Position numbers and translations under genes: made by a program
The notes under the pieces: generated by a model
The model's database searches: none
What the model saw: only the letters and a program-made list of their open reading frames with translations
What the model was told of the DNA's origin: nothing
In this document: positions 1 through 37,063 of the stretch, one piece after another
Numbering within the stretch: the first letter of the stretch is position 1
Layout: each line of letters starts with the position of its first letter
Sequence record: OL964749.1
Length of the DNA: 37,063 nucleotides
Direction: 5' to 3' (one strand)
From: Escherichia phage T7

Positions 1-150
1 CTCACAGTGTACGGACCTAAAGTTCCCCCATAGGGGTACCTAAAGCCCAGCCAATCACCTAAAGTCAATGACCTTGAGGGTTCCCTAAGGGTTGGGGATG
101 ACCCTTGGGTTTGTCTTTGGGTGTTACCTTGAGTGTCTCTCTGTGTCCCT
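1..150. repeat. Left terminal direct repeat (TR) of a T7-type genome; identical copy at the right end
   Basis: Bases 1-150 recur exactly at 36914-37063; sequence matches the T7 terminal redundancy (CTCACAGTGTACGGACCTAAAG...). Confidence 0.95.
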
Positions 151-345
151 ACCTGTTACAGTCTCCTAAAGTATCCTCCTAAAGTATCCTCCTAAAGTCA
201 CCTCCTAACGTCCATCCTAAAGCCAACACCTAAAGACCCATCAAGTCAACGCCTATCTTAAAGTTTAAACATAAAGACCAGACCTAAAGACCAGACCTAA
301 AGACACTACATAAAGACCAGACCTAAAGACGCCTTGTTGTTAGCC
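151..345. repeat. Left-end array of short CCTAAAG-containing repeats (concatemer junction region)
   Basis: Repeated 12-13 bp units such as CCTAAAGTATCCT (165-177 and 178-190), CCTAAAGTCACCT, CCTAAAGACCAGA, as in the T7 left end. Confidence 0.8.
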
Positions 346-366
346 ATAAAGTGATAACCTTTAATC

Positions 367-431
367 ATTGTCTTTATTAATACAACTCATTGTCTTTATT
401 AATATAATCATTGTCTTTATTAATACAACTC
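367..431 (+). repeat. Tandem triplication of a 21-22 bp unit (ATTGTCTTTATTAATACAACTC) spanning the upstream half of promoter phiOL
   Basis: Copies at 367-388, 389-409 (variant AATATAATC) and 410-431; only the third is followed by CACTATAAGGAGAG. Confidence 0.85.
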
Positions 432-443
432 ACTATAAGGAGA
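421..443 (+). promoter_or_regulatory. T7 RNA polymerase promoter phiOL (left-end replication/packaging-associated promoter)
   Basis: TAATACAACTCACTATAAGGAGAG matches the T7 promoter consensus over -17 to +6 except two positions; predicted +1 near 438. Confidence 0.8.
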
Positions 444-494
444 GACAACTTAAAGAGACTTAAAAGATTAATTTAAAATTTATCAAAAAGAGTA

Positions 495-531
495 TTGACT
501 TAAAGTCTAACCTATAGGATACTTACAGCCA
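495..531 (+). promoter_or_regulatory. Strong early sigma70 promoter A1
   Basis: -35 TTGACT (495-500), 17-bp spacer, -10 GATACT (518-523), start near 531; matches the known T7 A1 sequence. Confidence 0.85.
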
Positions 532-642
532 TCGAGAGGGACACGGCGAATAGCCATCCCAATCGACACCGGGGTCAACCGGGCGCACAGTGCCTTCTAG
601 GTGACTTAAGCGCACCACGGCACATAAGGTGAAACAAAACGG

Positions 643-679
643 TTGACAACATGAAGTAAACACGGTACGATGTACCACA
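643..679 (+). promoter_or_regulatory. Early sigma70 promoter A3
   Basis: -35 TTGACA (643-648), 17-bp spacer, -10 TACGAT (666-671); matches T7 A3. The A2 promoter expected between A1 and A3 is absent. Confidence 0.85.
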
Positions 680-789
680 TGAAACGACAGTGAGTCACCA
701 CACTGAAAGGTGATGCGGTCTAACGAAACCTGACCTAAGACGCTCTTTAACAATCTGGTAAATAGCTCTTGAGTGCATGACTAGCGGAT

Positions 790-830
790 AACTCAAGGGT
801 ATCGCAAGGTGCCCTTTATGATATTCACTA
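790..830 (+). promoter_or_regulatory. RNase III processing hairpin R0.3
   Basis: Inverted repeat AAGGGTATCGCAAGGTGCCCTT just upstream of the ocr start, typical of T7 RNase III sites. Confidence 0.55.
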
Positions 831-853
831 ATAACTGCACGAGGTAACACAAG

Positions 854-1549
854 ATGGCTATGTCTAACATGACTTACAACAACGTTTTCGACCACGCTTA
901 CGAAATGCTGAAAGAAAACATCCGTTATGATGACATCCGTGACACTGATGACCTGCACGATGCTATTCACATGGCTGCCGATAATGCAGTTCCGCACTAC
1001 TACGCTGACATCTTTAGCGTAATGGCAAGTGAGGGCATTGACCTTGAGTTCGAAGACTCTGATCTGATGCCTGACACCAAGGACGTAATCCGCATCCTGC
1101 AAGCGCGTATCTATGAGCAATTAACGATTGACCTCTGGGAAGACGCAGAAGACTTGCTCAATGAATACTTGGAGGAAGTCGAGGAAGTCGCACGACAGAA
1201 AGAAATTGACCGCGCTAAGGCCCGTAAAGAACGTCACGAGGGGCGCTTAGAGGCACGCAGATTCAAACGTCGCAACCGCAAGGCACGTAAAGCACACAAA
1301 GCTAAGCGCGAAAGAATGCTTGCTGCGTGGCGATGGGCTGAACGTCAAGAACGGCGTAACCATGAGGTAGCTGTAGATGTACTAGGAAGAACCAATAACG
1401 CTATGCTCCGGGTCAACATGTCCTCTGGGGACTTTAAGGCGCTTGAGGAACGAATCGCGCTGCACTGGCGTAATGCTGACCGGATGGCTATCGCTAATGG
1501 TCTTACGCTCAACATTGATAAGCAACTTGACGCAATGTTAATGGGCTGA
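854..1549 (+). CDS. In-frame fusion: Ocr (gene 0.3 anti-restriction DNA mimic, residues 1 to about 111) joined to the C-terminal roughly 120 aa of gp0.7 (host transcription shut-off domain); kinase domain absent
   Basis: 231-aa ORF; N-terminus [19 protein letters not shown]...[10 protein letters not shown] equals T7 Ocr, then a basic Arg/Lys-rich tail ending 71 bp before gene 1, as gene 0.7 does in T7. Confidence 0.85.
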
Positions 1550-1552
1550 TAG

Positions 1553-1612
1553 TCTTATCTTACAGGTCATCTGCGGGTGGCCTGAATAGGTACGATTTAC
1601 TAACTGGAAGAG
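1553..1612 (+). promoter_or_regulatory. RNase III site R1 upstream of gene 1
   Basis: Hairpin CAGGTCATCTGCGGGTGGCCTG between the fusion ORF stop and the gene 1 start. Confidence 0.6.
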
Positions 1613-1619
1613 GCACTAA

Positions 1620-4271
1620 ATGAACACGATTAACATCGCTAAGAACGACTTCTCTGACATCGAACTGGCTGCTATCCCGTTCAACACTCTGGCTGACCAT
1701 TACGGTGAGCGTTTAGCTCGCGAACAGTTGGCCCTTGAGCATGAGTCTTACGAGATGGGTGAAGCACGCTTCCGCAAGATGTTTGAGCGTCAACTTAAAG
1801 CTGGTGAGGTTGCGGATAACGCTGCCGCCAAGCCTCTCATCACTACCCTACTCCCTAAGATGATTGCACGCATCAACGACTGGTTTGAGGAAGTGAAAGC
1901 TAAGCGCGGCAAGCGCCAGACAGCCTTCCAGTTCCTGCAAGAAATCAAGCCGGAAGCCGTAGCGTACATCACCATTAAGACCACTCTGGCTTGCCTAACC
2001 AGTGCTGACAATACAACCGTTCAGGCTGTAGCAAGCGCAATCGGTCGGGCCATTGAGGACGAGGCTCGCTTCGGTCGTATCCGTGACCTTGAAGCTAAGC
2101 ACTTCAAGAAAAACGTTGAGGAACAACTCAACAAGCGCGTAGGGCACGTCTACAAGAAAGCATTTATGCGAGTTGTCGAGGCTGACATGCTCTCTAAGGG
2201 TCTACTCGGTGGCGAGGCGTGGTCTTCGTGGCATAAGGAAGACTCTATTCATGTAGGAGTACGCTGCATCGAGATGCTCATTGAGTCAACCGGAATGGTT
2301 AGCTTACACCGCCAAAATGCTGGCGTAGTAGGTCAAGACTCTGAGACTATCGAACTCGCACCTGAATACGCTGAGGCTATCGCAACCCGTGCAGGTGCGC
2401 TGGCTGGCATCTCTCCGATGTTCCAACCTTGCGTAGTTCCTCCTAAGCCGTGGACTGGCATTACTGGTGGTGGCTATTGGGCTAACGGTCGTCGTCCTCT
2501 GGCGCTGGTGCGTACTCACAGTAAGAAAGCACTGATGCGCTACGAAGACGTTTACATGCCTGAGGTGTACAAAGCGATTAACATTGCGCAAAACACCGCA
2601 TGGAAAATCAACAAGAAAGTCCTAGCGGTCGCCAACGTAATCACCAAGTGGAAGCATTGTCCGGTCGAGGACATCCCTGCGATTGAGCATGAAGAACTCC
2701 CGATGAAACCGGAAGACATCGACATGAATCCTGAGGCTCTCACCGCGTGGAAACGTGCTGCCGCTGCTGTGTACCGCAAGGACAAGGCTCGCAAGTCTCG
2801 CCGTATCAGCCTTGAGTTCATGCTTGAGCAAGCCAATAAGTTTGCTAACCATAAGGCCATCTGGTTCCCTTACAACATGGACTGGCGCGGTCGTGTTTAC
2901 GCTGTGTCAATGTTCAACCCGCAAGGTAACGATATGACCAAAGGACTGCTTACGCTGGCGAAAGGTAAACCAATCGGTAAGGAAGGTTACTACTGGCTGA
3001 AAATCCACGGTGCAAACTGTGCGGGTGTCGATAAGGTTCCGTTCCCTGATCGCATCAAGTTCATTGAGGAAAACCACGAGAACATCATGGCTTGCGCTAA
3101 GTCTCCACTGGAGAACACTTGGTGGGCTGAGCAAGATTCTCCGTTCTGCTTCCTTGCGTTCTGCTTTGAGTACGCTGGGGTACAGCACCACGGCCTGAGC
3201 TATAACTGCTCCCTTCCGCTGGCGTTTGACGGGTCTTGCTCTGGCATCCAGCACTTCTCCGCGATGCTCCGAGATGAGGTAGGTGGTCGCGCGGTTAACT
3301 TGCTTCCTAGTGAAACCGTTCAGGACATCTACGGGATTGTTGCTAAGAAAGTCAACGAGATTCTACAAGCAGACGCAATCAATGGGACCGATAACGAAGT
3401 AGTTACCGTGACCGATGAGAACACTGGTGAAATCTCTGAGAAAGTCAAGCTGGGCACTAAGGCACTGGCTGGTCAATGGCTGGCTTACGGTGTTACTCGC
3501 AGTGTGACTAAGCGTTCAGTCATGACGCTGGCTTACGGGTCCAAAGAGTTCGGCTTCCGTCAACAAGTGCTGGAAGATACCATTCAGCCAGCTATTGATT
3601 CCGGCAAGGGTCTGATGTTCACTCAGCCGAATCAGGCTGCTGGATACATGGCTAAGCTGATTTGGGAATCTGTGAGCGTGACGGTGGTAGCTGCGGTTGA
3701 AGCAATGAACTGGCTTAAGTCTGCTGCTAAGCTGCTGGCTGCTGAGGTCAAAGATAAGAAGACTGGAGAGATTCTTCGCAAGCGTTGCGCTGTGCATTGG
3801 GTAACTCCTGATGGTTTCCCTGTGTGGCAGGAATACAAGAAGCCTATTCAGACGCGCTTGAACCTGATGTTCCTCGGTCAGTTCCGCTTACAGCCTACCA
3901 TTAACACCAACAAAGATAGCGAGATTGATGCACACAAACAGGAGTCTGGTATCGCTCCTAACTTTGTACACAGCCAAGACGGTAGCCACCTTCGTAAGAC
4001 TGTAGTGTGGGCACACGAGAAGTACGGAATCGAATCTTTTGCACTGATTCACGACTCCTTCGGTACCATTCCGGCTGACGCTGCGAACCTGTTCAAAGCA
4101 GTGCGCGAAACTATGGTTGACACATATGAGTCTTGTGATGTACTGGCTGATTTCTACGACCAGTTCGCTGACCAGTTGCACGAGTCTCAATTGGACAAAA
4201 TGCCAGCACTTCCGGCTAAAGGTAACTTGAACCTCCGTGACATCTTAGAGTCGGACTTCGCGTTCGCGTAA
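1620..4271 (+). CDS. T7 RNA polymerase (gene 1), single-subunit DNA-dependent RNA polymerase
   Basis: 883-aa ORF, MNTINIAKNDFSDIELAAIPFNTLADHYG...ESDFAFA, essentially identical to T7 RNAP. Confidence 0.98.
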   Translation: MNTINIAKNDFSDIELAAIPFNTLADHYGERLAREQLALEHESYEMGEARFRKMFERQLKAGEVADNAAAKPLITTLLPKMIARINDWFEEVKAKRGKRQTAFQFLQEIKPEAVAYITIKTTLACLTSADNTTVQAVASAIGRAIEDEARFGRIRDLEAKHFKKNVEEQLNKRVGHVYKKAFMRVVEADMLSKGLLGGEAWSSWHKEDSIHVGVRCIEMLIESTGMVSLHRQNAGVVGQDSETIELAPEYAEAIATRAGALAGISPMFQPCVVPPKPWTGITGGGYWANGRRPLALVRTHSKKALMRYEDVYMPEVYKAINIAQNTAWKINKKVLAVANVITKWKHCPVEDIPAIEHEELPMKPEDIDMNPEALTAWKRAAAAVYRKDKARKSRRISLEFMLEQANKFANHKAIWFPYNMDWRGRVYAVSMFNPQGNDMTKGLLTLAKGKPIGKEGYYWLKIHGANCAGVDKVPFPDRIKFIEENHENIMACAKSPLENTWWAEQDSPFCFLAFCFEYAGVQHHGLSYNCSLPLAFDGSCSGIQHFSAMLRDEVGGRAVNLLPSETVQDIYGIVAKKVNEILQADAINGTDNEVVTVTDENTGEISEKVKLGTKALAGQWLAYGVTRSVTKRSVMTLAYGSKEFGFRQQVLEDTIQPAIDSGKGLMFTQPNQAAGYMAKLIWESVSVTVVAAVEAMNWLKSAAKLLAAEVKDKKTGEILRKRCAVHWVTPDGFPVWQEYKKPIQTRLNLMFLGQFRLQPTINTNKDSEIDAHKQESGIAPNFVHSQDGSHLRKTVVWAHEKYGIESFALIHDSFGTIPADAANLFKAVRETMVDTYESCDVLADFYDQFADQLHESQLDKMPALPAKGNLNLRDILESDFAFA

Positions 4272-4279
4272 CGCCAAAT

Positions 4280-4302
4280 CAATACGACTCACTATAGAGG
4301 GA
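4280..4302 (+). promoter_or_regulatory. T7 promoter phi1.1A
   Basis: CAATACGACTCACTATAGAGGGA; +1 near 4297. Confidence 0.85.
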
Positions 4303-7350: not shown

Positions 7351-8049
7351 ATGGCTAAGAAGATTTTCACCTCTGCGCTGGGTACCGCTGAACCTTACGC
7401 TTACATCGCCAAGCCGGACTACGGCAACGAAGAGCGTGGCTTTGGGAACCCTCGTGGTGTCTATAAAGTTGACCTGACTATTCCCAACAAAGACCCGCGC
7501 TGCCAGCGTATGGTCGATGAAATCGTGAAGTGTCACGAAGAGGCTTATGCTGCTGCCGTTGAGGAATACGAAGCTAATCCACCTGCTGTAGCTCGTGGTA
7601 AGAAACCGCTGAAACCGTATGAGGGTGACATGCCGTTCTTCGATAACGGTGACGGTACGACTACCTTTAAGTTCAAATGCTACGCGTCTTTCCAAGACAA
7701 GAAGACCAAAGAGACCAAGCACATCAATCTTGTTGTGGTTGACTCAAAAGGTAAGAAGATGGAAGACGTTCCGATTATCGGTGGTGGCTCTAAGCTGAAA
7801 GTTAAATATTCTCTGGTTCCATACAAGTGGAACACTGCTGTAGGTGCGAGCGTTAAGCTGCAACTGGAATCCGTGATGCTGGTCGAACTGGCTACCTTTG
7901 GTGGCGGTGAAGACGATTGGGCTGACGAAGTTGAAGAGAACGGCTATGTTGCCTCTGGTTCTGCCAAAGCGAGCAAACCACGCGACGAAGAAAGCTGGGA
8001 CGAAGACGACGAAGAGTCCGAGGAAGCAGACGAAGACGGAGACTTCTAA
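7351..8049 (+). CDS. Single-stranded DNA-binding protein gp2.5
   Basis: 232-aa ORF MAKKIFTSALGTAEPYAYIAKPDYGNEERGFGNPRGVYKVDLTIPN... with acidic C-terminal tail ending ...EADEDGDF. Confidence 0.95.
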   Translation: MAKKIFTSALGTAEPYAYIAKPDYGNEERGFGNPRGVYKVDLTIPNKDPRCQRMVDEIVKCHEEAYAAAVEEYEANPPAVARGKKPLKPYEGDMPFFDNGDGTTTFKFKCYASFQDKKTKETKHINLVVVDSKGKKMEDVPIIGGGSKLKVKYSLVPYKWNTAVGASVKLQLESVMLVELATFGGGEDDWADEVEENGYVASGSAKASKPRDEESWDEDDEESEEADEDGDF

Positions 8050-8469
8050 GTGGAACTGCGGGAGAAAATCCTTGAGCGAATCAAGGTGACTTCCTCTGGG
8101 TGTTGGGAGTGGCAGGGCGCTACGAACAATAAAGGGTACGGGCAGGTGTGGTGCAGCAATACCGGAAAGGTTGTCTACTGTCATCGCGTAATGTCTAATG
8201 CTCCGAAAGGTTCTACCGTCCTGCACTCCTGTGATAATCCATTATGTTGTAACCCTGAACACCTATCCATAGGAACTCCAAAAGAGAACTCCACTGACAT
8301 GGTAAATAAGGGTCGCTCACACAAGGGGTATAAACTTTCAGACGAAGACGTAATGGCAATCATGGAGTCCAGCGAGTCCAATGTATCCTTAGCTCGCACC
8401 TATGGTGTCTCCCAACAGACTATTTGTGATATACGCAAATGGAGGCGACATGGCAGGTTACGGCGCTAA
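8050..8469 (+). CDS. Gene 2.8 protein (139 aa), HNH-type endonuclease-like
   Basis: ORF starting at GTG directly after the 2.5 stop; contains CHRVMSNAPKGSTVLHSCDNPLCCNPEHL, an HNH-like Cys/His motif. Confidence 0.7.
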   Translation: MELREKILERIKVTSSGCWEWQGATNNKGYGQVWCSNTGKVVYCHRVMSNAPKGSTVLHSCDNPLCCNPEHLSIGTPKENSTDMVNKGRSHKGYKLSDEDVMAIMESSESNVSLARTYGVSQQTICDIRKWRRHGRLRR

Positions 8470-8899
8470 AGGAATCCGAAAGGTTGGAGCGTTTCGCTCT
8501 GGCCTAGAGGACAAGGTTTCAAAGCAGTTGGAATCAAAAGGTATTAAATTCGAGTATGAAGAGTGGAAAGTGCCTTATGTAATTCCGGCGAGCAATCACA
8601 CTTACACTCCAGACTTCTTACTTCCAAACGGTATATTCGTTGAGACAAAGGGTCTGTGGGAAAGCGATGATAGAAAGAAGCACTTATTAATTAGGGAGCA
8701 GCACCCCGAGCTAGACATCCGTATTGTCTTCTCAAGCTCACGTACTAAGTTATACAAAGATTCTCCAACGTCTTATGGAGAGTTCTGCGAAAAGCATGGT
8801 ATTAAGTTCGCTGATAAACTGATACCTGCTGAGTGGATAAAGGAACCCAAGAAGGAGGTCCCCTTTGATAGATTAAAAAGGAAAGGAGGAAAGAAATAA
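8450..8899 (+). CDS. Endonuclease I (gene 3), Holliday-junction resolvase
   Basis: 149-aa ORF MAGYGAKGIRKVGAFRSGLEDKVSKQLESKGIKFEYEEWKVPYVIPASNHTYTPDFLLPNG...; the track start at 8402 is an upstream extension. Confidence 0.9.
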   Translation: MAGYGAKGIRKVGAFRSGLEDKVSKQLESKGIKFEYEEWKVPYVIPASNHTYTPDFLLPNGIFVETKGLWESDDRKKHLLIREQHPELDIRIVFSSSRTKLYKDSPTSYGEFCEKHGIKFADKLIPAEWIKEPKKEVPFDRLKRKGGKK

Positions 8900-9355: not shown

Positions 9356-9377
9356 TAATTGAACTCACTAAAGGGAG

Positions 9378-9378
<1 letters not shown>
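9356..9378 (+). promoter_or_regulatory. T7 promoter phi3.8
   Basis: TAATTGAACTCACTAAAGGGAGA; +1 near 9373. Confidence 0.85.
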
Positions 9379-12068: not shown

Positions 12069-14183
12069 ATGATCGTTTCTGACATCGAAGCTAACGCCCT
12101 CTTAGAGAGCGTCACTAAGTTCCACTGCGGGGTTATCTACGACTACTCCACCGCTGAGTACGTAAGCTACCGTCCGAGTGACTTCGGTGCGTATCTGGAT
12201 GCGCTGGAAGCCGAGGTTGCACGAGGCGGTCTTATTGTGTTCCACAACGGTCACAAGTATGACGTTCCTGCATTGACCAAACTGGCAAAGTTGCAATTGA
12301 ACCGAGAGTTCCACCTTCCTCGTGAGAACTGTATTGACACCCTTGTGTTGTCACGTTTGATTCATTCCAACCTCAAGGACACCGATATGGGTCTTCTGCG
12401 TTCCGGCAAGTTGCCCGGAAAACGCTTTGGGTCTCACGCTTTGGAGGCGTGGGGTTATCGCTTAGGCGAGATGAAGGGTGAATACAAAGACGACTTTAAG
12501 CGTATGCTTGAAGAGCAGGGTGAAGAATACGTTGACGGAATGGAGTGGTGGAACTTCAACGAAGAGATGATGGACTATAACGTTCAGGACGTTGTGGTAA
12601 CTAAAGCTCTCCTTGAGAAGCTACTCTCTGACAAACATTACTTCCCTCCTGAGATTGACTTTACGGACGTAGGATACACTACGTTCTGGTCAGAATCCCT
12701 TGAGGCCGTTGACATTGAACATCGTGCTGCATGGCTGCTCGCTAAACAAGAGCGCAACGGGTTCCCGTTTGACACAAAAGCAATCGAAGAGTTGTACGTA
12801 GAGTTAGCTGCTCGCCGCTCTGAGTTGCTCCGTAAATTGACCGAAACGTTCGGCTCGTGGTATCAGCCTAAAGGTGGCACTGAGATGTTCTGCCATCCGC
12901 GAACAGGTAAGCCACTACCTAAATACCCTCGCATTAAGACACCTAAAGTTGGTGGTATCTTTAAGAAGCCTAAGAACAAGGCACAGCGAGAAGGCCGTGA
13001 GCCTTGCGAACTTGATACCCGCGAGTACGTTGCTGGTGCTCCTTACACCCCAGTTGAACATGTTGTGTTTAACCCTTCGTCTCGTGACCACATTCAGAAG
13101 AAACTCCAAGAGGCTGGGTGGGTCCCGACCAAGTACACCGATAAGGGTGCTCCTGTGGTGGACGATGAGGTACTCGAAGGAGTACGTGTAGATGACCCTG
13201 AGAAGCAAGCCGCTATCGACCTCATTAAAGAGTACTTGATGATTCAGAAGCGAATCGGACAGTCTGCTGAGGGAGACAAAGCATGGCTTCGTTATGTTGC
13301 TGAGGATGGTAAGATTCATGGTTCTGTTAACCCTAATGGAGCAGTTACGGGTCGTGCGACCCATGCGTTCCCAAACCTTGCGCAAATTCCGGGTGTACGT
13401 TCTCCTTATGGAGAGCAGTGTCGCGCTGCTTTTGGCGCTGAGCACCATTTGGATGGGATAACTGGTAAGCCTTGGGTTCAGGCTGGCATCGACGCATCCG
13501 GTCTTGAGCTACGCTGCTTGGCTCACTTCATGGCTCGCTTTGATAACGGCGAGTACGCTCACGAGATTCTTAACGGCGACATCCACACTAAGAACCAGAT
13601 AGCTGCTGAACTACCTACCCGAGATAACGCTAAGACGTTCATCTATGGGTTCCTCTATGGTGCTGGTGATGAGAAGATTGGACAGATTGTTGGTGCTGGT
13701 AAAGAGCGCGGTAAGGAACTCAAGAAGAAATTCCTTGAGAACACCCCCGCGATTGCAGCACTCCGCGAGTCTATCCAACAGACACTTGTCGAGTCCTCTC
13801 AATGGGTAGCTGGTGAGCAACAAGTCAAGTGGAAACGCCGCTGGATTAAAGGTCTGGATGGTCGTAAGGTACACGTTCGTAGTCCTCACGCTGCCTTGAA
13901 TACCCTACTGCAATCTGCTGGTGCTCTCATCTGCAAACTGTGGATTATCAAGACCGAAGAGATGCTCGTAGAGAAAGGCTTGAAGCATGGCTGGGATGGG
14001 GACTTTGCGTACATGGCATGGGTACATGATGAAATCCAAGTAGGCTGCCGTACCGAAGAGATTGCTCAGGTGGTCATTGAGACCGCACAAGAAGCGATGC
14101 GCTGGGTTGGAGACCACTGGAACTTCCGGTGTCTTCTGGATACCGAAGGTAAGATGGGTCCTAATTGGGCGATTTGCCACTGA
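12069..14183 (+). CDS. DNA polymerase gp5 (family A, thioredoxin-binding, with 3'-5' exonuclease)
   Basis: 704-aa [39 protein letters not shown]... with exonuclease and polymerase motifs; matches T7 gp5. Confidence 0.98.
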
Positions 14184-14198
14184 TACAGGAGGCTACTC

Positions 14199-14402
14199 AT
14201 GAACGAAAGACACTTAACAGGTGCTGCTTCTGAAATGCTAGTAGCCTACAAATTTACCAAAGCTGGGTACACTGTCTATTACCCTATGCTGACTCAGAGT
14301 AAAGAGGACTTGGTTGTATGTAAGGATGGTAAATTTAGTAAGGTTCAGGTTAAAACATTGTGGTTGACGAAGATGTGCTTATTTTCACATGGGACGAAGT
14401 AA
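14199..14402 (+). CDS. Gene 5.3 (HNH endonuclease-like), frameshift-truncated to 67 aa against 118 aa in reference
   Basis: N-terminus MNERHLTGAASEMLVAYKFTKAGYTVYYPMLTQSKEDLVVCKDGKFSKVQVKT matches gp5.3, then a short out-of-frame tail; about 100 bp missing. Confidence 0.7.
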   Translation: MNERHLTGAASEMLVAYKFTKAGYTVYYPMLTQSKEDLVVCKDGKFSKVQVKTLWLTKMCLFSHGTK

Positions 14403-16220: not shown

Positions 16221-16475
16221 ATGTTAACACCTATTAACCAATTACTTAAGAACCCTAACGATATTCCAGATGTACCTCGTGCAACCGCTGAGTATCTACA
16301 GGTTCGATTCAACTATGCGTACCTCGAAGCGTCTGGTCATATAGGACTTATGCGTGCTAATGGTTGTAGTGAGGCCCACATCTTGGGTTTCATTCAGGGC
16401 CTACAGTATGCCTCTAACGTCATTGACGAGATTGAGTTACGCAAGGAACAACTAAGAGATGATGGGGAGGATTGA
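16221..16475 (+). CDS. Gene 6.5 protein (84 aa)
   Basis: [43 protein letters not shown]... preceded by AAGAGGAA. Confidence 0.85.
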
Positions 16476-16479
16476 CACT

Positions 16480-16746
16480 ATGTGTTTCTCACCGAAAATT
16501 AAAACTCCGAAGATGGATACCAATCAGATTCGAGCCGTTGAGCCAGCGCCTCTGACCCAAGAAGTGTCAAGCGTGGAGTTCGGTGGGTCTTCTGATGAGA
16601 CGGATACCGAGGGCACCGAAGTGTCTGGACGCAAAGGCCTCAAGGTCGAACGTGATGATTCCGTAGCGAAGTCTAAAGCCAGCGGCAATGGCTCCGCTCG
16701 TATGAAATCTTCCATCCGTAAGTCCGCATTTGGAGGTAAGAAGTGA
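16480..16746 (+). CDS. Gene 6.7 protein (88 aa, virion protein)
   Basis: ORF MCFSPKIKTPKMDTNQIRAVEPAPLTQEVSSVEFGG...; the track start at 16459 is an upstream extension. Confidence 0.8.
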   Translation: MCFSPKIKTPKMDTNQIRAVEPAPLTQEVSSVEFGGSSDETDTEGTEVSGRKGLKVERDDSVAKSKASGNGSARMKSSIRKSAFGGKK

Positions 16747-17147
16747 TGTCTGAGTTCACATGTGTGGAGGCTAAGAGTCGCTTCCGTGCAATCCGGTGGA
16801 CTGTGGAACACCTTGGGTTGCCTAAAGGATTCGAAGGACACTTTGTGGGCTACAGCCTCTACGTAGACGAAGTGATGGACATGTCTGGTTGCCGTGAAGA
16901 GTACATTCTGGACTCTACCGGAAAACATGTAGCGTACTTCGCGTGGTGCGTAAGCTGTGACATTCACCACAAAGGAGACATTCTGGATGTAACGTCCGTT
17001 GTCATTAATCATGAGGCAGACTCTAAGGGCTTACAGCGATTCCTAGCGAAACGCTTTAAGTACCTTGCGGAACTCCACGATTGCGATTGGGTGTCTCGTT
17101 GTAAGCATGAAGGCGAGACAATGCGTGTATACTTTAAGGAGGTATAA
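16746..17147 (+). CDS. Gene 7 protein (133 aa)
   Basis: ORF MSEFTCVEAKSRFRAIRWTVEHLGLPKGFEGHFVGYSLYV...; start overlaps the 6.7 stop (GTGATG). Confidence 0.85.
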   Translation: MSEFTCVEAKSRFRAIRWTVEHLGLPKGFEGHFVGYSLYVDEVMDMSGCREEYILDSTGKHVAYFAWCVSCDIHHKGDILDVTSVVINHEADSKGLQRFLAKRFKYLAELHDCDWVSRCKHEGETMRVYFKEV

Positions 17148-17150
17148 GTT

Positions 17151-17438
17151 ATGGGTAAGAAAGTTAAGAAGGCCGTGAAGAAAGTCACCAAGTCCGTTAA
17201 GGAAGGGGCTCGTCCGGTTAAACAGGTTGCTGGCGGTCTAGCTGGTCTGGCTGGTGGTACTGGTGAAGCACAGATGGTGGAAGTACCACAAGCTGCCGCA
17301 CAGATTGTTGACGTACCTGAGAAAGAGGTTTCCACTGAGGACGAAGCACAGACAGAAAGCGGACGCAAGAAAGCTCGTGCTGGCGGTAAGAAATCCTTGA
17401 GTGTAGCCCGTAGCTCCGGTGGCGGTATCAACATTTAA
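17151..17438 (+). CDS. Gene 7.3 protein (tail-associated), 95 aa here (reference about 99 aa)
   Basis: Lys-rich ORF MGKKVKKAVKKVTKSVKEGARPVKQVAGGLAGLAGG... preceded by AAGGAGGT. Confidence 0.8.
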   Translation: MGKKVKKAVKKVTKSVKEGARPVKQVAGGLAGLAGGTGEAQMVEVPQAAAQIVDVPEKEVSTEDEAQTESGRKKARAGGKKSLSVARSSGGGINI

Positions 17439-17451
17439 TCAGGAGGTTATC

Positions 17452-17475
17452 CGTAAGACATGGAGACACATTTAA
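17452..17475 (+). other. Residual 3' end of gene 7.7 (last 7 codons plus stop), retaining the gene 8 ribosome-binding region
   Basis: Only CGTAAGACATGGAGACACATTTAA remains between the 7.3 intergenic AGGAGG and the gene 8 ATG, where reference T7 carries the roughly 130-codon gene 7.7. Confidence 0.65.
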
Positions 17476-19085
17476 TGGCTGAGAAACGAACAGGACTTGC
17501 GGAGGATGGCGCAAAGTCTGTCTATGAGCGTTTAAAGAACGACCGTGCTCCCTATGAGACACGCGCTCAGAATTGCGCTCAATATACCATCCCATCATTG
17601 TTCCCTAAGGACTCCGATAACGCCTCTACAGATTATCAAACTCCGTGGCAAGCCGTGGGCGCTCGTGGTCTGAACAATCTAGCCTCTAAGCTCATGCTGG
17701 CTCTATTCCCTATGCAGACTTGGATGCGACTTACTATATCTGAATATGAAGCAAAGCAGTTACTGAGCGACCCCGATGGACTCGCTAAGGTCGATGAGGG
17801 CCTCTCGATGGTAGAGCGTATCATCATGAACTACATTGAGTCTAACAGTTACCGCGTGACTCTCTTTGAGGCTCTCAAACAGTTAGTCGTAGCTGGTAAC
17901 GTCCTGCTGTACCTACCGGAACCGGAAGGGTCAAACTATAATCCCATGAAGCTGTACCGATTGTCTTCTTATGTGGTCCAACGAGACGCATTCGGCAACG
18001 TTCTGCAAATGGTGACTCGTGACCAGATAGCTTTTGGTGCTCTCCCTGAGGACATCCGTAAGGCTGTAGAAGGTCAAGGTGGTGAGAAGAAAGCTGATGA
18101 GACAATCGACGTGTACACTCACATCTATCTGGATGAGGACTCAGGTGAATACCTCCGATACGAAGAGGTCGAGGGTATGGAAGTCCAAGGCTCCGATGGG
18201 ACTTATCCTAAAGAGGCTTGCCCATACATCCCGATTCGGATGGTCAGACTAGATGGTGAATCCTACGGTCGTTCGTACATTGAGGAATACTTAGGTGACT
18301 TACGGTCCCTTGAAAATCTCCAAGAGGCTATCGTCAAGATGTCCATGATTAGCTCTAAGGTTATCGGCTTAGTGAATCCTGCTGGTATCACCCAGCCACG
18401 CCGACTGACCAAAGCTCAGACTGGTGACTTCGTTACTGGTCGTCCAGAAGACATCTCGTTCCTCCAACTGGAGAAGCAAGCAGACTTTACTGTAGCTAAA
18501 GCCGTAAGTGACGCTATCGAGGCTCGCCTTTCGTTTGCCTTTATGTTGAACTCTGCGGTTCAGCGTACAGGTGAACGTGTGACCGCCGAAGAGATTCGGT
18601 ATGTAGCTTCTGAACTTGAAGATACTTTAGGTGGTGTCTACTCTATCCTTTCTCAAGAATTACAATTGCCTCTGGTACGAGTGCTCTTGAAGCAACTACA
18701 AGCCACGCAACAGATTCCTGAGTTACCTAAGGAAGCCGTAGAGCCAACCATTAGTACAGGTCTGGAAGCAATTGGTCGAGGACAAGACCTTGATAAGCTG
18801 GAGCGGTGTGTCACTGCGTGGGCTGCACTGGCACCTATGCGGGACGACCCTGATATTAACCTTGCGATGATTAAGTTACGTATTGCCAACGCTATCGGTA
18901 TTGACACTTCTGGTATTCTACTCACCGAAGAACAGAAGCAACAGAAGATGGCCCAACAGTCTATGCAAATGGGTATGGATAATGGTGCTGCTGCGCTGGC
19001 TCAAGGTATGGCTGCACAAGCTACAGCTTCACCTGAGGCTATGGCTGCTGCCGCTGATTCCGTAGGTTTACAGCCGGGAATTTAA
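17475..19085 (+). CDS. Head-to-tail connector (portal) protein gp8
   Basis: 536-aa ORF MAEKRTGLAEDGAKSVYERLKNDRAPYETRAQNCAQYTIP...; the track start at 17460 is an upstream in-frame extension. Confidence 0.95.
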   Translation: MAEKRTGLAEDGAKSVYERLKNDRAPYETRAQNCAQYTIPSLFPKDSDNASTDYQTPWQAVGARGLNNLASKLMLALFPMQTWMRLTISEYEAKQLLSDPDGLAKVDEGLSMVERIIMNYIESNSYRVTLFEALKQLVVAGNVLLYLPEPEGSNYNPMKLYRLSSYVVQRDAFGNVLQMVTRDQIAFGALPEDIRKAVEGQGGEKKADETIDVYTHIYLDEDSGEYLRYEEVEGMEVQGSDGTYPKEACPYIPIRMVRLDGESYGRSYIEEYLGDLRSLENLQEAIVKMSMISSKVIGLVNPAGITQPRRLTKAQTGDFVTGRPEDISFLQLEKQADFTVAKAVSDAIEARLSFAFMLNSAVQRTGERVTAEEIRYVASELEDTLGGVYSILSQELQLPLVRVLLKQLQATQQIPELPKEAVEPTISTGLEAIGRGQDLDKLERCVTAWAALAPMRDDPDINLAMIKLRIANAIGIDTSGILLTEEQKQQKMAQQSMQMGMDNGAAALAQGMAAQATASPEAMAAAADSVGLQPGI

Positions 19086-19184: not shown

Positions 19185-20108
19185 ATGGCTGAATCTAATG
19201 CAGACGTATATGCATCTTTTGGCGTGAACTCCGCTGTGATGTCTGGTGGTTCCGTTGAGGAACATGAGCAGAACATGCTGGCTCTTGATGTTGCTGCCCG
19301 TGATGGCGATGATGCAATCGAGTTAGCGTCAGACGAAGTGGAAACAGAACGTGACCTGTATGACAACTCTGACCCGTTCGGTCAAGAGGATGACGAAGGC
19401 CGCATTCAGGTTCGTATCGGTGATGGCTCTGAGCCGACCGATGTGGACACTGGAGAAGAAGGCGTTGAGGGCACCGAAGGTTCCGAAGAGTTTACCCCAC
19501 TGGGCGAGACTCCAGAAGAACTGGTAGCTGCCTCTGAGCAACTTGGTGAGCACGAAGAGGGCTTCCAAGAGATGATTAACATTGCTGCTGAGCGTGGCAT
19601 GAGTGTCGAGACCATTGAGGCTATCCAGCGTGAGTACGAGGAGAACGAAGAGTTGTCCGCCGAGTCCTACGCTAAGCTGGCTGAAATTGGCTACACGAAG
19701 GCTTTCATTGACTCGTATATCCGTGGTCAAGAAGCTCTGGTGGAGCAGTACGTAAACAGTGTCATTGAGTACGCTGGTGGTCGTGAACGTTTTGATGCAC
19801 TGTATAACCACCTTGAGACGCACAACCCTGAGGCTGCACAGTCGCTGGATAATGCGTTGACCAATCGTGACTTAGCGACCGTTAAGGCTATCATCAACTT
19901 GGCTGGTGAGTCTCGCGCTAAGGCGTTCGGTCGTAAGCCAACTCGTAGTGTGACTAATCGTGCTATTCCGGCTAAACCTCAGGCTACCAAGCGTGAAGGC
20001 TTTGCGGACCGTAGCGAGATGATTAAAGCTATGAGTGACCCTCGGTATCGCACAGATGCCAACTATCGTCGTCAAGTCGAACAGAAAGTAATCGATTCGA
20101 ACTTCTGA
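19185..20108 (+). CDS. Capsid assembly (scaffolding) protein gp9
   Basis: 307-aa acidic ORF MAESNADVYASFGVNSAVMSGGSVEEHEQNMLALD...; matches T7 gp9. Confidence 0.95.
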   Translation: MAESNADVYASFGVNSAVMSGGSVEEHEQNMLALDVAARDGDDAIELASDEVETERDLYDNSDPFGQEDDEGRIQVRIGDGSEPTDVDTGEEGVEGTEGSEEFTPLGETPEELVAASEQLGEHEEGFQEMINIAAERGMSVETIEAIQREYEENEELSAESYAKLAEIGYTKAFIDSYIRGQEALVEQYVNSVIEYAGGRERFDALYNHLETHNPEAAQSLDNALTNRDLATVKAIINLAGESRAKAFGRKPTRSVTNRAIPAKPQATKREGFADRSEMIKAMSDPRYRTDANYRRQVEQKVIDSNF

Positions 20109-20121
20109 TAGACTTCGAAAT

Positions 20122-20144
20122 TAATACGACTCACTATAGTGAGA
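20122..20144 (+). promoter_or_regulatory. T7 class III promoter phi10 carrying a G-to-T change at +2 (TATAGTGAGA instead of TATAGGGAGA)
   Basis: TAATACGACTCACTATAGTGAGACCACAACGGTTTCCCTCTAGAAATAATTTTGTTTAACTTTAAGAAGGAGATATACATATG; otherwise identical to the phi10 promoter and leader used in pET vectors. Confidence 0.9.
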
Positions 20145-20201
20145 CCACAACGGTTTCCCTCTAGAAATAATTTTGTTTAACTTTAAGAAGGAGATATACA
20201 T

Positions 20202-21239
20202 ATGGCTAGCATGACTGGTGGACAGCAAATGGGTACTAACCAAGGTAAAGGTGTAGTTGCTGCTGGAGATAAACTGGCGTTGTTCTTGAAGGTATTTGGC
20301 GGTGAAGTCCTGACTGCGTTCGCTCGTACCTCCGTGACCACTTCTCGCCACATGGTACGTTCCATCTCCAGCGGTAAATCCGCTCAGTTCCCTGTTCTGG
20401 GTCGCACTCAGGCAGCGTATCTGGCTCCGGGCGAGAACCTCGACGATAAACGTAAGGACATCAAACACACCGAGAAGGTAATCACCATTGACGGTCTCCT
20501 GACGGCTGACGTTCTGATTTATGATATTGAGGACGCGATGAACCACTACGACGTTCGCTCTGAGTATACCTCTCAGTTGGGTGAATCTCTGGCGATGGCT
20601 GCGGATGGTGCGGTTCTGGCTGAGATTGCCGGTCTGTGTAACGTGGAAAGCAAATATAATGAGAACATCGAGGGCTTAGGTACTGCTACCGTAATTGAGA
20701 CCACTCAGAACAAGGCCGCACTTACCGACCAAGTTGCGCTGGGTAAGGAGATTATTGCGGCTCTGACTAAGGCTCGTGCGGCTCTGACCAAGAACTATGT
20801 TCCGGCTGCTGACCGTGTGTTCTACTGTGACCCAGATAGCTACTCTGCGATTCTGGCAGCACTGATGCCGAACGCAGCAAACTACGCTGCTCTGATTGAC
20901 CCTGAGAAGGGTTCTATCCGCAACGTTATGGGCTTTGAGGTTGTAGAAGTTCCGCACCTCACCGCTGGTGGTGCTGGTACCGCTCGTGAGGGCACTACTG
21001 GTCAGAAGCACGTCTTCCCTGCCAATAAAGGTGAGGGTAATGTCAAGGTTGCTAAGGACAACGTTATCGGCCTGTTCATGCACCGCTCTGCGGTAGGTAC
21101 TGTTAAGCTGCGTGACTTGGCTCTGGAGCGCGCTCGCCGTGCTAACTTCCAAGCGGACCAGATTATCGCTAAGTACGCAATGGGCCACGGTGGTCTTCGC
21201 CCAGAAGCTGCTGGTGCAGTGGTTTTCAAAGTGGAGTAA
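20202..21239 (+). CDS. Major capsid protein gp10A
   Basis: 345-aa ORF MASMTGGQQMGTNQGKGVVAAGDKLALFLKVFGGEVLTAFARTSV...; identical to T7 gp10A including the T7-tag N-terminus. Confidence 0.98.
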   Translation: MASMTGGQQMGTNQGKGVVAAGDKLALFLKVFGGEVLTAFARTSVTTSRHMVRSISSGKSAQFPVLGRTQAAYLAPGENLDDKRKDIKHTEKVITIDGLLTADVLIYDIEDAMNHYDVRSEYTSQLGESLAMAADGAVLAEIAGLCNVESKYNENIEGLGTATVIETTQNKAALTDQVALGKEIIAALTKARAALTKNYVPAADRVFYCDPDSYSAILAALMPNAANYAALIDPEKGSIRNVMGFEVVEVPHLTAGGAGTAREGTTGQKHVFPANKGEGNVKVAKDNVIGLFMHRSAVGTVKLRDLALERARRANFQADQIIAKYAMGHGGLRPEAAGAVVFKVE

Positions 21240-21396
21240 TGCTGGGGGTGGCCTCAACGGTCGCTGCTAGTCCCGAAGAGGCGAGTGTTACTTCAACAGA
21301 AGAAACCTTAACGCCAGCACAGGAGGCCGCACGCACCCGCGCTGCTAACAAAGCCCGAAAGGAAGCTGAGTTGGCTGCTGCCACCGCTGAGCAATA
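20202..21396 (+). CDS. Minor capsid protein gp10B produced by programmed -1 ribosomal frameshift near the end of 10A
   Basis: The -1 frame stays open from the GGTTTTC slippery region near 21225 to a TAA at 21394-21396, just before Tphi, as in T7. Confidence 0.7.
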
Positions 21397-21403
21397 ACTA
21401 GCA

Positions 21404-21444
21404 TAACCCCTTGGGGCCTCTAAACGGGTCTTGAGGGGTTTTTT
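21404..21444 (+). terminator. Tphi, the T7 RNA polymerase terminator
   Basis: AACCCCTTGGGGCCTCTAAACGGGTCTTGAGGGGTTTTTTG, a GC-rich hairpin followed by a U-run; identical to the Tphi used in expression vectors. Confidence 0.97.
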
Positions 21445-21462
21445 GCTGAAAGGAGGAACTAT

Positions 21463-22053
21463 ATGCGCTCATACGATATGAACGTTGAGACTGCCGCTGA
21501 GTTATCAGCTGTGAACGACATTCTGGCGTCTATCGGTGAACCTCCGGTATCAACGCTGGAAGGTGACGCTAACGCAGATGCAGCGAACGCTCGGCGTATT
21601 CTCAACAAGATTAACCGACAGATTCAATCTCGTGGATGGACGTTCAACATTGAGGAAGGCATAACGCTACTACCTGATGTTTACTCCAACCTGATTGTAT
21701 ACAGTGACGACTATTTATCCCTAATGTCTACTTCCGGTCAATCCATCTACGTTAACCGAGGTGGCTATGTGTATGACCGAACGAGTCAATCAGACCGCTT
21801 TGACTCTGGTATTACTGTGAACATTATTCGTCTCCGCGACTACGATGAGCTGCCTGAGTGCTTCCGTTACTGGATTGTCACCAAGGCTTCCCGTCAGTTC
21901 AACAACCGATTCTTTGGGGAACCGGAAGTAGAGGGTGTACTCCAAGAAGAGGAAGATGAGGCTAGACGTCTCTGCATGGAGTATGAGATGGACTACGGTG
22001 GGTACAATATGCTGGATGGAGATGCGTTCACTTCTGGTCTACTGACTCGCTAA
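21463..22053 (+). CDS. Tail tubular protein gp11
   Basis: 196-aa [38 protein letters not shown]... Confidence 0.95.
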
Positions 22054-36912: not shown

Positions 36913-37063
36913 TCTCACAGTGTACGGACCTAAAGTTCCCCCATAGGGGTACCTAAAGCCCAGCCAATCACCTAAAGTCAATGACCTTGAGGGTTCCCTA
37001 AGGGTTGGGGATGACCCTTGGGTTTGTCTTTGGGTGTTACCTTGAGTGTCTCTCTGTGTCCCT
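36913..37063. repeat. Right terminal direct repeat (TR)
   Basis: 36914-37063 is identical to 1-150; the preceding T at 36913 corresponds to the first TR base missing from the window start. Confidence 0.95.

Follow-up and report, generated by a model that had tools for sequence, protein, structure and literature searches.

Gene 7.7 of a genome-reduced phage T7 clone carries a published engineered deletion that leaves the gene 8 start region in place

Gene 7.7 of Escherichia phage T7 is sporadic among its relatives: it is present in T7 and YpsP-G and absent from JeanTinguely, IME390 and MegaDucksbill, in which gene 7.3 adjoins gene 8. It has also been removed experimentally. In CiPGr (Yuan, Shi, Jiang and Ma, Nucleic Acids Res 2022, PMC9825161), a Cas9-based genome reduction carried through 300 transfers of T7, each 200-bp cassette consists of a spacer and a homologous repair template of two times 50 bp. 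Two cassette versions, one removing 100 bp and the other a whole gene, were handled as separate libraries, and gp7.7 is listed among the genes deleted or disrupted and reported as removable. The smallest genome of that study is T7_300L, while T7_100_t2, obtained from mixed populations by subsequent passaging, is its "optimal" mutant with a 7.1% reduction; a gp17 Asn158Asp substitution, undesigned large deletions and escape mutations are reported as well (PMC9825161). More recently, the T7-B chassis (SMART method, mBio 2025, PMC12153263) was built with a seamless gp7.7 deletion, and the locus was used for payload. Here we describe the same locus in OL964749.1, a T7 record of 37,063 nucleotides that was analysed over its full length (the window). 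Coordinates are those of the window unless marked as reference (NC_001604), and all features of the locus that are given with window coordinates lie on its plus strand.

The locus was compared by four-way alignment, and both of the losses found were then reconstructed exactly. In the reference, gene 7.3 (19535-19834) is followed by gene 7.7, an HNH endonuclease gene (19848-20240), and by gene 8 (20240-21850). Reference gp7.7, 130 aa long, is a member of Pfam HNH_3 (E=2.6e-13; 49.8 bits versus a cut-off of 24.8), which bears out the 130-codon HNH-like gene that a preliminary description of the window had placed here. Across a 2-kb stretch (16400-18400) the window is at least 99% identical to many T7 records. 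OL964748 (Mutant Escherichia phage T7 clone T7_1t1, 37,088 bp) matches this stretch at 100% and in one piece; V01146 and NC_001604 align to it in two pieces, with 2,382 bp per 2,001 bp of query, so that the window is short of 381 bp. The loss in gene 7.7 takes away 369 bp (123 codons, reference 19848-20216), beginning with the G of the GTG start and sparing the last 24 nt of the gene. Only one placement is possible (0 bp of junction ambiguity), and there is no microhomology; reference 19847 is joined to 20217 at 17451..17452. What remains of the gene (17452-17475, CGTAAGACATGGAGACACATTTAA) is 24 nt long and holds the last 7 sense codons and TAA. The final A of this remnant is also the A of the gene 8 ATG (17475-17477), leaving 23 nt in front of the ATG. 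The preliminary description had proposed just this structure, an almost complete excision of 7.7 with about 24 nt left before gene 8, and the alignment bears it out, including the presence of 7.7 between 7.3 and 8 in the reference. It had also called the excision in frame. The length is indeed a multiple of three, but this has no consequence because the GTG start codon is itself deleted; with no start codon on the remnant, neither translation in the 7.7 frame nor a remnant peptide is expected.

Gene 8, which encodes the portal protein (head-tail connector), lies at 17475-19085; its 536-aa product (Pfam Head-tail_con, E=2.8e-113) shows zero differences from reference gp8. The engineered genome has two tandem Shine-Dalgarno sequences in front of it. 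The nearer one, GGAGA at 17462-17466, was retained from within 7.7, as had been pointed out earlier, and stands 8 nt before the ATG; its position, together with the established T7 annotation, suggests that it acts as the gene 8 ribosome-binding site. The farther one, AGGAGG at 17441-17446, is the former Shine-Dalgarno sequence of 7.7, which was kept and now has no start codon at working distance. The deletion places another ATG (17460-17462) 13 nt downstream of this orphan AGGAGG. It appears in the list of open reading frames, is in the frame of gene 8 and would add METHL to the protein; in MZ375294, MZ375281 and MZ375288 the annotated gene 8 begins at this upstream ATG (1626 nt). In the wild type the stop codon of 7.7 overlaps the start of gene 8 (TAATG), and some translational coupling between the two genes is possible. 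After the deletion the nearest translated open reading frame is 7.3, which ends 36 nt upstream of gene 8, so gene 8 would need direct initiation at GGAGA. RNA folding with three window sizes predicted a probability of being unpaired of 0.58-0.59 in the wild type and 0.52-0.65 in the deletion for positions -20 to +15 of gene 8; as the predicted accessibilities are similar, folding neither backs nor weakens an effect on translation. A scan of the junction region found no sigma-70-like promoter and no intrinsic terminator created by the deletion, and the annotation of NC_001604 has no regulatory feature between phi6.5 (18545) and phi9 (21865). Since no annotated promoter or terminator lies in the deleted stretch, transcription should be unaffected. 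The phage is viable without 7.7, as the deletion is carried by multiple isolates.

To find other genomes with the same junction, we searched with a 120-nt probe spanning it and counted as matches only alignments at 100% in one piece. Nine records have exactly this junction, namely MZ375281 (T7_250L), MZ375287, MZ375288 (T7_280S), MZ375289-292, MZ375294 (T7_300L.2) and OL964748 (T7_1t1), and all other T7 records match the probe in two pieces. The four that were examined (T7_250L, T7_280S, T7_300L.2 and T7_1t1) are named clones with differing backgrounds. The window agrees with these CiPGr clones in the junction to the base (19847 to 20217), in companion 100-bp and whole-ORF deletions and in the N158D substitution of gp17, which the window carries too; with the 1t clones it further shares a 12-bp loss in gene 7.3. 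Relative to T7_1t1, the window has an additional 100-bp deletion in 5.3 and keeps 75 bp between the promoters phi1.1A and phi1.1B that T7_1t1 has lost. With T7_1t3 (OL964750) it has all other deletions in common, the difference being that T7_1t3 retains 7.7. The window genome is 7.2% smaller than that of the wild type, close to the 7.1% given for T7_100_t2, and is probably the further sibling T7_1t2. The loss of 7.7 is thus a published engineered deletion and as such already known; it is the clone names and the deletion signatures that point to Yuan et al. as the origin of these accessions and of the arm coordinates at 7.7. We are highly confident that the window is a genome-reduced T7 carrying an engineered CiPGr deletion of 7.7, a sibling of T7_1t1 and T7_1t3, and that the loss in 7.3 is a separate matter.

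The remaining large changes help to place this deletion. Against NC_001604 the window has ten larger deletions. Five of them are exactly 100 bp long, at reference 8163-8262 (gene 1.7), about 13343-13442 (4.3), 14172-14271 (4.7), 16642-16741 (5.3) and 39565-39664, and one removes a whole open reading frame exactly (gene 1.4, reference 7608-7763). Three others, of 104 bp, 1480 bp and 277 bp, do not look designed: they lie between direct repeats of 9, 13 and 9 bp, respectively, and look spontaneous. The 7.7 deletion has no repeat at its junction, and its left boundary is base 1 of the open reading frame (reference 19848); for these two reasons it belongs with the templated class. As the window mixes 100-bp with whole-gene deletions, which came from separate libraries, its history would require recombination in the mixed populations of the paper.

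The deletion map of T7_300L.2 is informative about the right boundary. Genes 1.4 and 4.7 are taken out exactly in this clone. The deletions of 1.7 (8190-8725), 5.3 (16483-16820) and 7.7 (19848-20216) stop 23 nt short of the 1.8 ATG, 30 nt short of 5.5 and 23 nt short of gene 8, respectively. The simplest reading of this pattern is that the tail of an open reading frame was kept where the next gene starts inside it or just after it. Retention of 3' ends is not uniform, gene 4.3 keeping 36 nt and gene 3.8 keeping 22-25 nt, and the main text of PMC9825161 gives no rule for it. A design that spares the gene 8 start region is well supported, with the pattern in the sister clone being what speaks for this purpose. 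The preliminary description had judged that the deletion looks designed. The start on base 1 of the open reading frame, the absence of microhomology, the recurrence in nine records, the CiPGr signatures and the T7_300L.2 pattern all agree with that judgement.

We weighed these observations against three other explanations of the 7.7 loss. It could have arisen spontaneously, by illegitimate or short-repeat recombination or as a CRISPR-escape deletion after a Cas9 cut. The three undesigned deletions (104, 1480 and 277 bp) show that such events took place in this very genome, and undesigned large deletions and escape mutations are on record for the method (PMC9825161). However, the undesigned deletions have repeats of 9-13 bp at their junctions, against 0 bp of microhomology for 7.7; on the left, the 7.7 deletion begins exactly on base 1 of the open reading frame; and the same junction is found in nine records, of which those examined differ in background. 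On the strength of these three points we rejected a spontaneous origin, which we consider very improbable. That the junction is an artefact of assembly or sequencing appears more improbable still: the left end of the window does have oddities that could be assembly-related, but the junction is common to nine separately assembled records, the sequence around it is clean, gene 8 is intact, and the loss of gp7.7 is reported in PMC9825161.

A natural T7 variant or relative that had lost the HNH gene or had never acquired it would likewise show 7.3 followed by gene 8, and such empty sites exist in JeanTinguely and IME390 (both Teseptimavirus) and in MegaDucksbill (Teetrevirus). Yet the natural sites read AGGAGG, 6 nt, ATG and do not have the 24-nt tail of 7.7 that is seen here. 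Moreover, the flanks in the window are about 99.9% identical to T7 itself, and deletions of exactly 100 bp elsewhere in the genome are not the product of any natural process. The retained 3' remnant contradicts this reading, the T7 flanks and the 100-bp deletions also speak against it, and we give it hardly any credence.

The deletion was very probably made as follows. Gene 7.7 is a non-essential, free-standing and mobile-like HNH endonuclease gene. Cas9 would have cut inside 7.7, and the break would have been repaired by homologous recombination with a template carried on a plasmid, in which two arms of 50 bp (the "cassette-gene" version) joined reference 19847, the base preceding the GTG, to 20217. 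The reason for sparing the last 24 nt of 7.7 would be, we propose, that the gene 8 Shine-Dalgarno sequence lies inside them and that the 7.7 stop overlaps the ATG (TAATG). In the resulting genome, gene 8 would initiate directly at its own ribosome-binding site instead of through a possible coupling to 7.7. The T7-B chassis offers a comparison: there, too, 7.7 was removed as non-essential and gene 8 still functions, confirming that 7.7 is dispensable, the difference being that T7-B was made by Red-ccdB recombineering on cloned segments.

The natural relatives suggest how this arrangement came about. In JeanTinguely (MZ501081) and vB_EcoP_IME390 (NC_048082), the gene 8 ATG comes immediately after TAATCAGGAGGTGACAC, and gene 8 has as its Shine-Dalgarno sequence the AGGAGG behind the 7.3 stop (JeanTinguely 320-400, IME390 311-391). 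Both phages resemble the window in that 7.3 is followed by gene 8 and that the AGGAGG after the 7.3 stop is conserved. They differ in the distance from AGGAGG to the gene 8 ATG, which is 6 nt in the two relatives and 28 nt in the window, where GGAGA is present in addition. Since AGGAGG is the gene 8 Shine-Dalgarno sequence in relatives that lack 7.7, the AGGAGG used by 7.7 in T7 is the ancestral gene 8 Shine-Dalgarno sequence. Gene 7.7 of T7, judging from this comparison of sequences, is an insertion between the ancestral Shine-Dalgarno sequence and the gene 8 ATG that brings a substitute in its own 3' end. As 7.7 took over the ancestral site in this way, a designer must either keep the tail of 7.7 or excise it precisely to restore the ancestral spacing.

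The second loss at the locus lies in gene 7.3, which encodes a virion (tail assembly) protein and occupies 17151-17438. It has 95 codons versus 99 in the reference; the preliminary description had noticed that four codons were lacking and suspected a 12-bp slip in the Lys-rich repeats that it could not localise. Comparison with the reference protein confirmed the first point, and the slip can now be assigned to reference 19579-19590 (CGTTAAGAAAGT), between two copies of CGTTAAG. Because this 7-bp direct repeat flanks the loss, there are eight equivalent placements, with starts up to reference 19586, and the window junction can lie anywhere from 17194|17195 to 17201|17202, that is, anywhere across the sole remaining CGTTAAG copy (17195-17201). 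The residues removed are KKVV, from MGKKVKKAVKKVTKSV(KKVV)KEG, turning TKSVKKVVKEG into TKSVKEG. The shortened protein still matches Pfam VirionAssem_T7 (E=3.8e-56), its 95 residues spanning profile positions 1-99. At its N-terminus gp7.3 consists of successive four-residue Lys-rich units, and their count varies among relatives; compared with T7, JeanTinguely and IME390 have one unit more and the window has one unit less. The loss is best read as short-repeat slippage in a region that tolerates changes in length. It is an event separate from the 7.7 deletion and not a designed one, either slippage or short-repeat recombination between the CGTTAAG copies.

The loss in 7.3 occurs in the window, T7_1t1 and T7_1t3, and no other record is at least 99% identical to the shortened sequence; T7_300L.2, the sole CiPGr isolate aligned at 7.3, has the gene at full length. 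It is thus confined to the three "t" clones, the window included, which come from a competition screen. A near-identical deletion is found in T7 isolate P82 (AY264778), which has also lost 12 bp from the same Lys-rich repeat and also has a 95-aa product. Its boundaries are shifted by 1 nt (AAGTTCGTTAAGG against AAGTCCGTTAAGG), giving K-F-V-K-E where the window has K-S-V-K-E, and this one-base shift marks it as an independent event. P82 presumably derives from an experimental-evolution line. A literature search returned no described 12-bp deletion in T7 7.3 and nothing on the origin of AY264778. We also considered an escape from Cas9. Visual inspection shows a protospacer (GTCCGTTAAGAAAGTCGTTA, with AGG next to it) that overlaps the site. 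Nothing points to such a spacer in the library, and apart from T7_1t1 and T7_1t3, which match the shortened form at 100%, no sequenced CiPGr isolate among the records searched carries the deletion; we leave escape as a possibility only. The loss may have been favoured in rapid serial passage.

The start region of gene 8 allows similarly tentative readings. The orphan AGGAGG, a strong site, might, to judge by its spacing from the upstream ATG, let a fraction of the portal protein begin METHL-MAEKR. Alternatively it might be a ribosome standby site that replaces the coupling to 7.7. Taken jointly, the proposals that the 7.3 loss was adaptive, or that some portal protein begins METHL-MAEKR or the AGGAGG acts as a standby site in place of 7.7 coupling, strike us as doubtful, with perhaps one chance in four.

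The main value of the 7.7 finding lies in provenance: the window is a genome-reduced T7 engineered in a published study, and it would be wrong to take its anomalies for natural biology. For work on T7 tail assembly and on experimental evolution, the 12-bp change that recurs in 7.3 offers a minor lead.

Several further changes were noted elsewhere in the genome. At the left end, a partial duplication, about 42 bp in length, lies immediately upstream of the phiOL promoter (364-431); the two copies of the terminal repeat have each lost about 10 bp from a palindromic hairpin (GTCAACCTTCGGTTGAC; 60-75 and 36970-36990); and small unit changes are seen in a short-repeat array (about 150-260). All of these could be genuine or could stem from the assembly. 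T7_1t1 is 99.93% identical to window 1-4297 with a single gap, and so appears to share them. The 104-bp deletion, between 9-bp repeats (GTCAACCGG), covers reference 541-644 (window junction 574-582), and with it the region of the E. coli promoter A2 (626) is gone.

The 1480-bp deletion, between 13-bp direct repeats, covers reference 1244-2723 (window junction 1173-1185). Across it, gene 0.3 (Ocr) runs on in frame into the C-terminal part of 0.7, giving a 231-aa hybrid (ORF 854-1549); genes 0.4-0.6 and the N-terminal two-thirds or so of 0.7 are lost through this fusion. The lost part of 0.7 is what we take to be the kinase part. Sister records label the Ocr-gp0.7 hybrid "protein kinase".

Among the 100-bp deletions, the one at reference 39565-39664 (window 36799|36800) falls in non-coding right-end DNA downstream of 19.5 (39389-39538); the gene prediction used by the authors of the study may differ here from the reference annotation. 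The one in 1.7 (reference 8163-8262; window 6455|6456) also takes the stop codon of 1.6. Sister records annotate gene 1.6 with 267 nt instead of 261, and the C-terminus of gp1.6 is therefore altered.

Compared with NC_001604 there are 39 substitutions, of which 19 are G:C to T:A transversions. This bias is unusual and is suggestive of oxidative damage or of a library or sequencing artefact. The substitutions are mostly missense, with four in the RNA polymerase, five missense changes in gp16, and K214E in addition to N158D in gp17. Finally, three small endonuclease-like genes are inactivated in the window: 3.8 (HNH_3; 9370-9378), 5.3 (PD-(D/E)XK; 14357|14358) and 7.7 itself (HNH_3; 17451|17452). 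Gene 2.8, which has a weak HNH_3 match, is retained and carries G131W.
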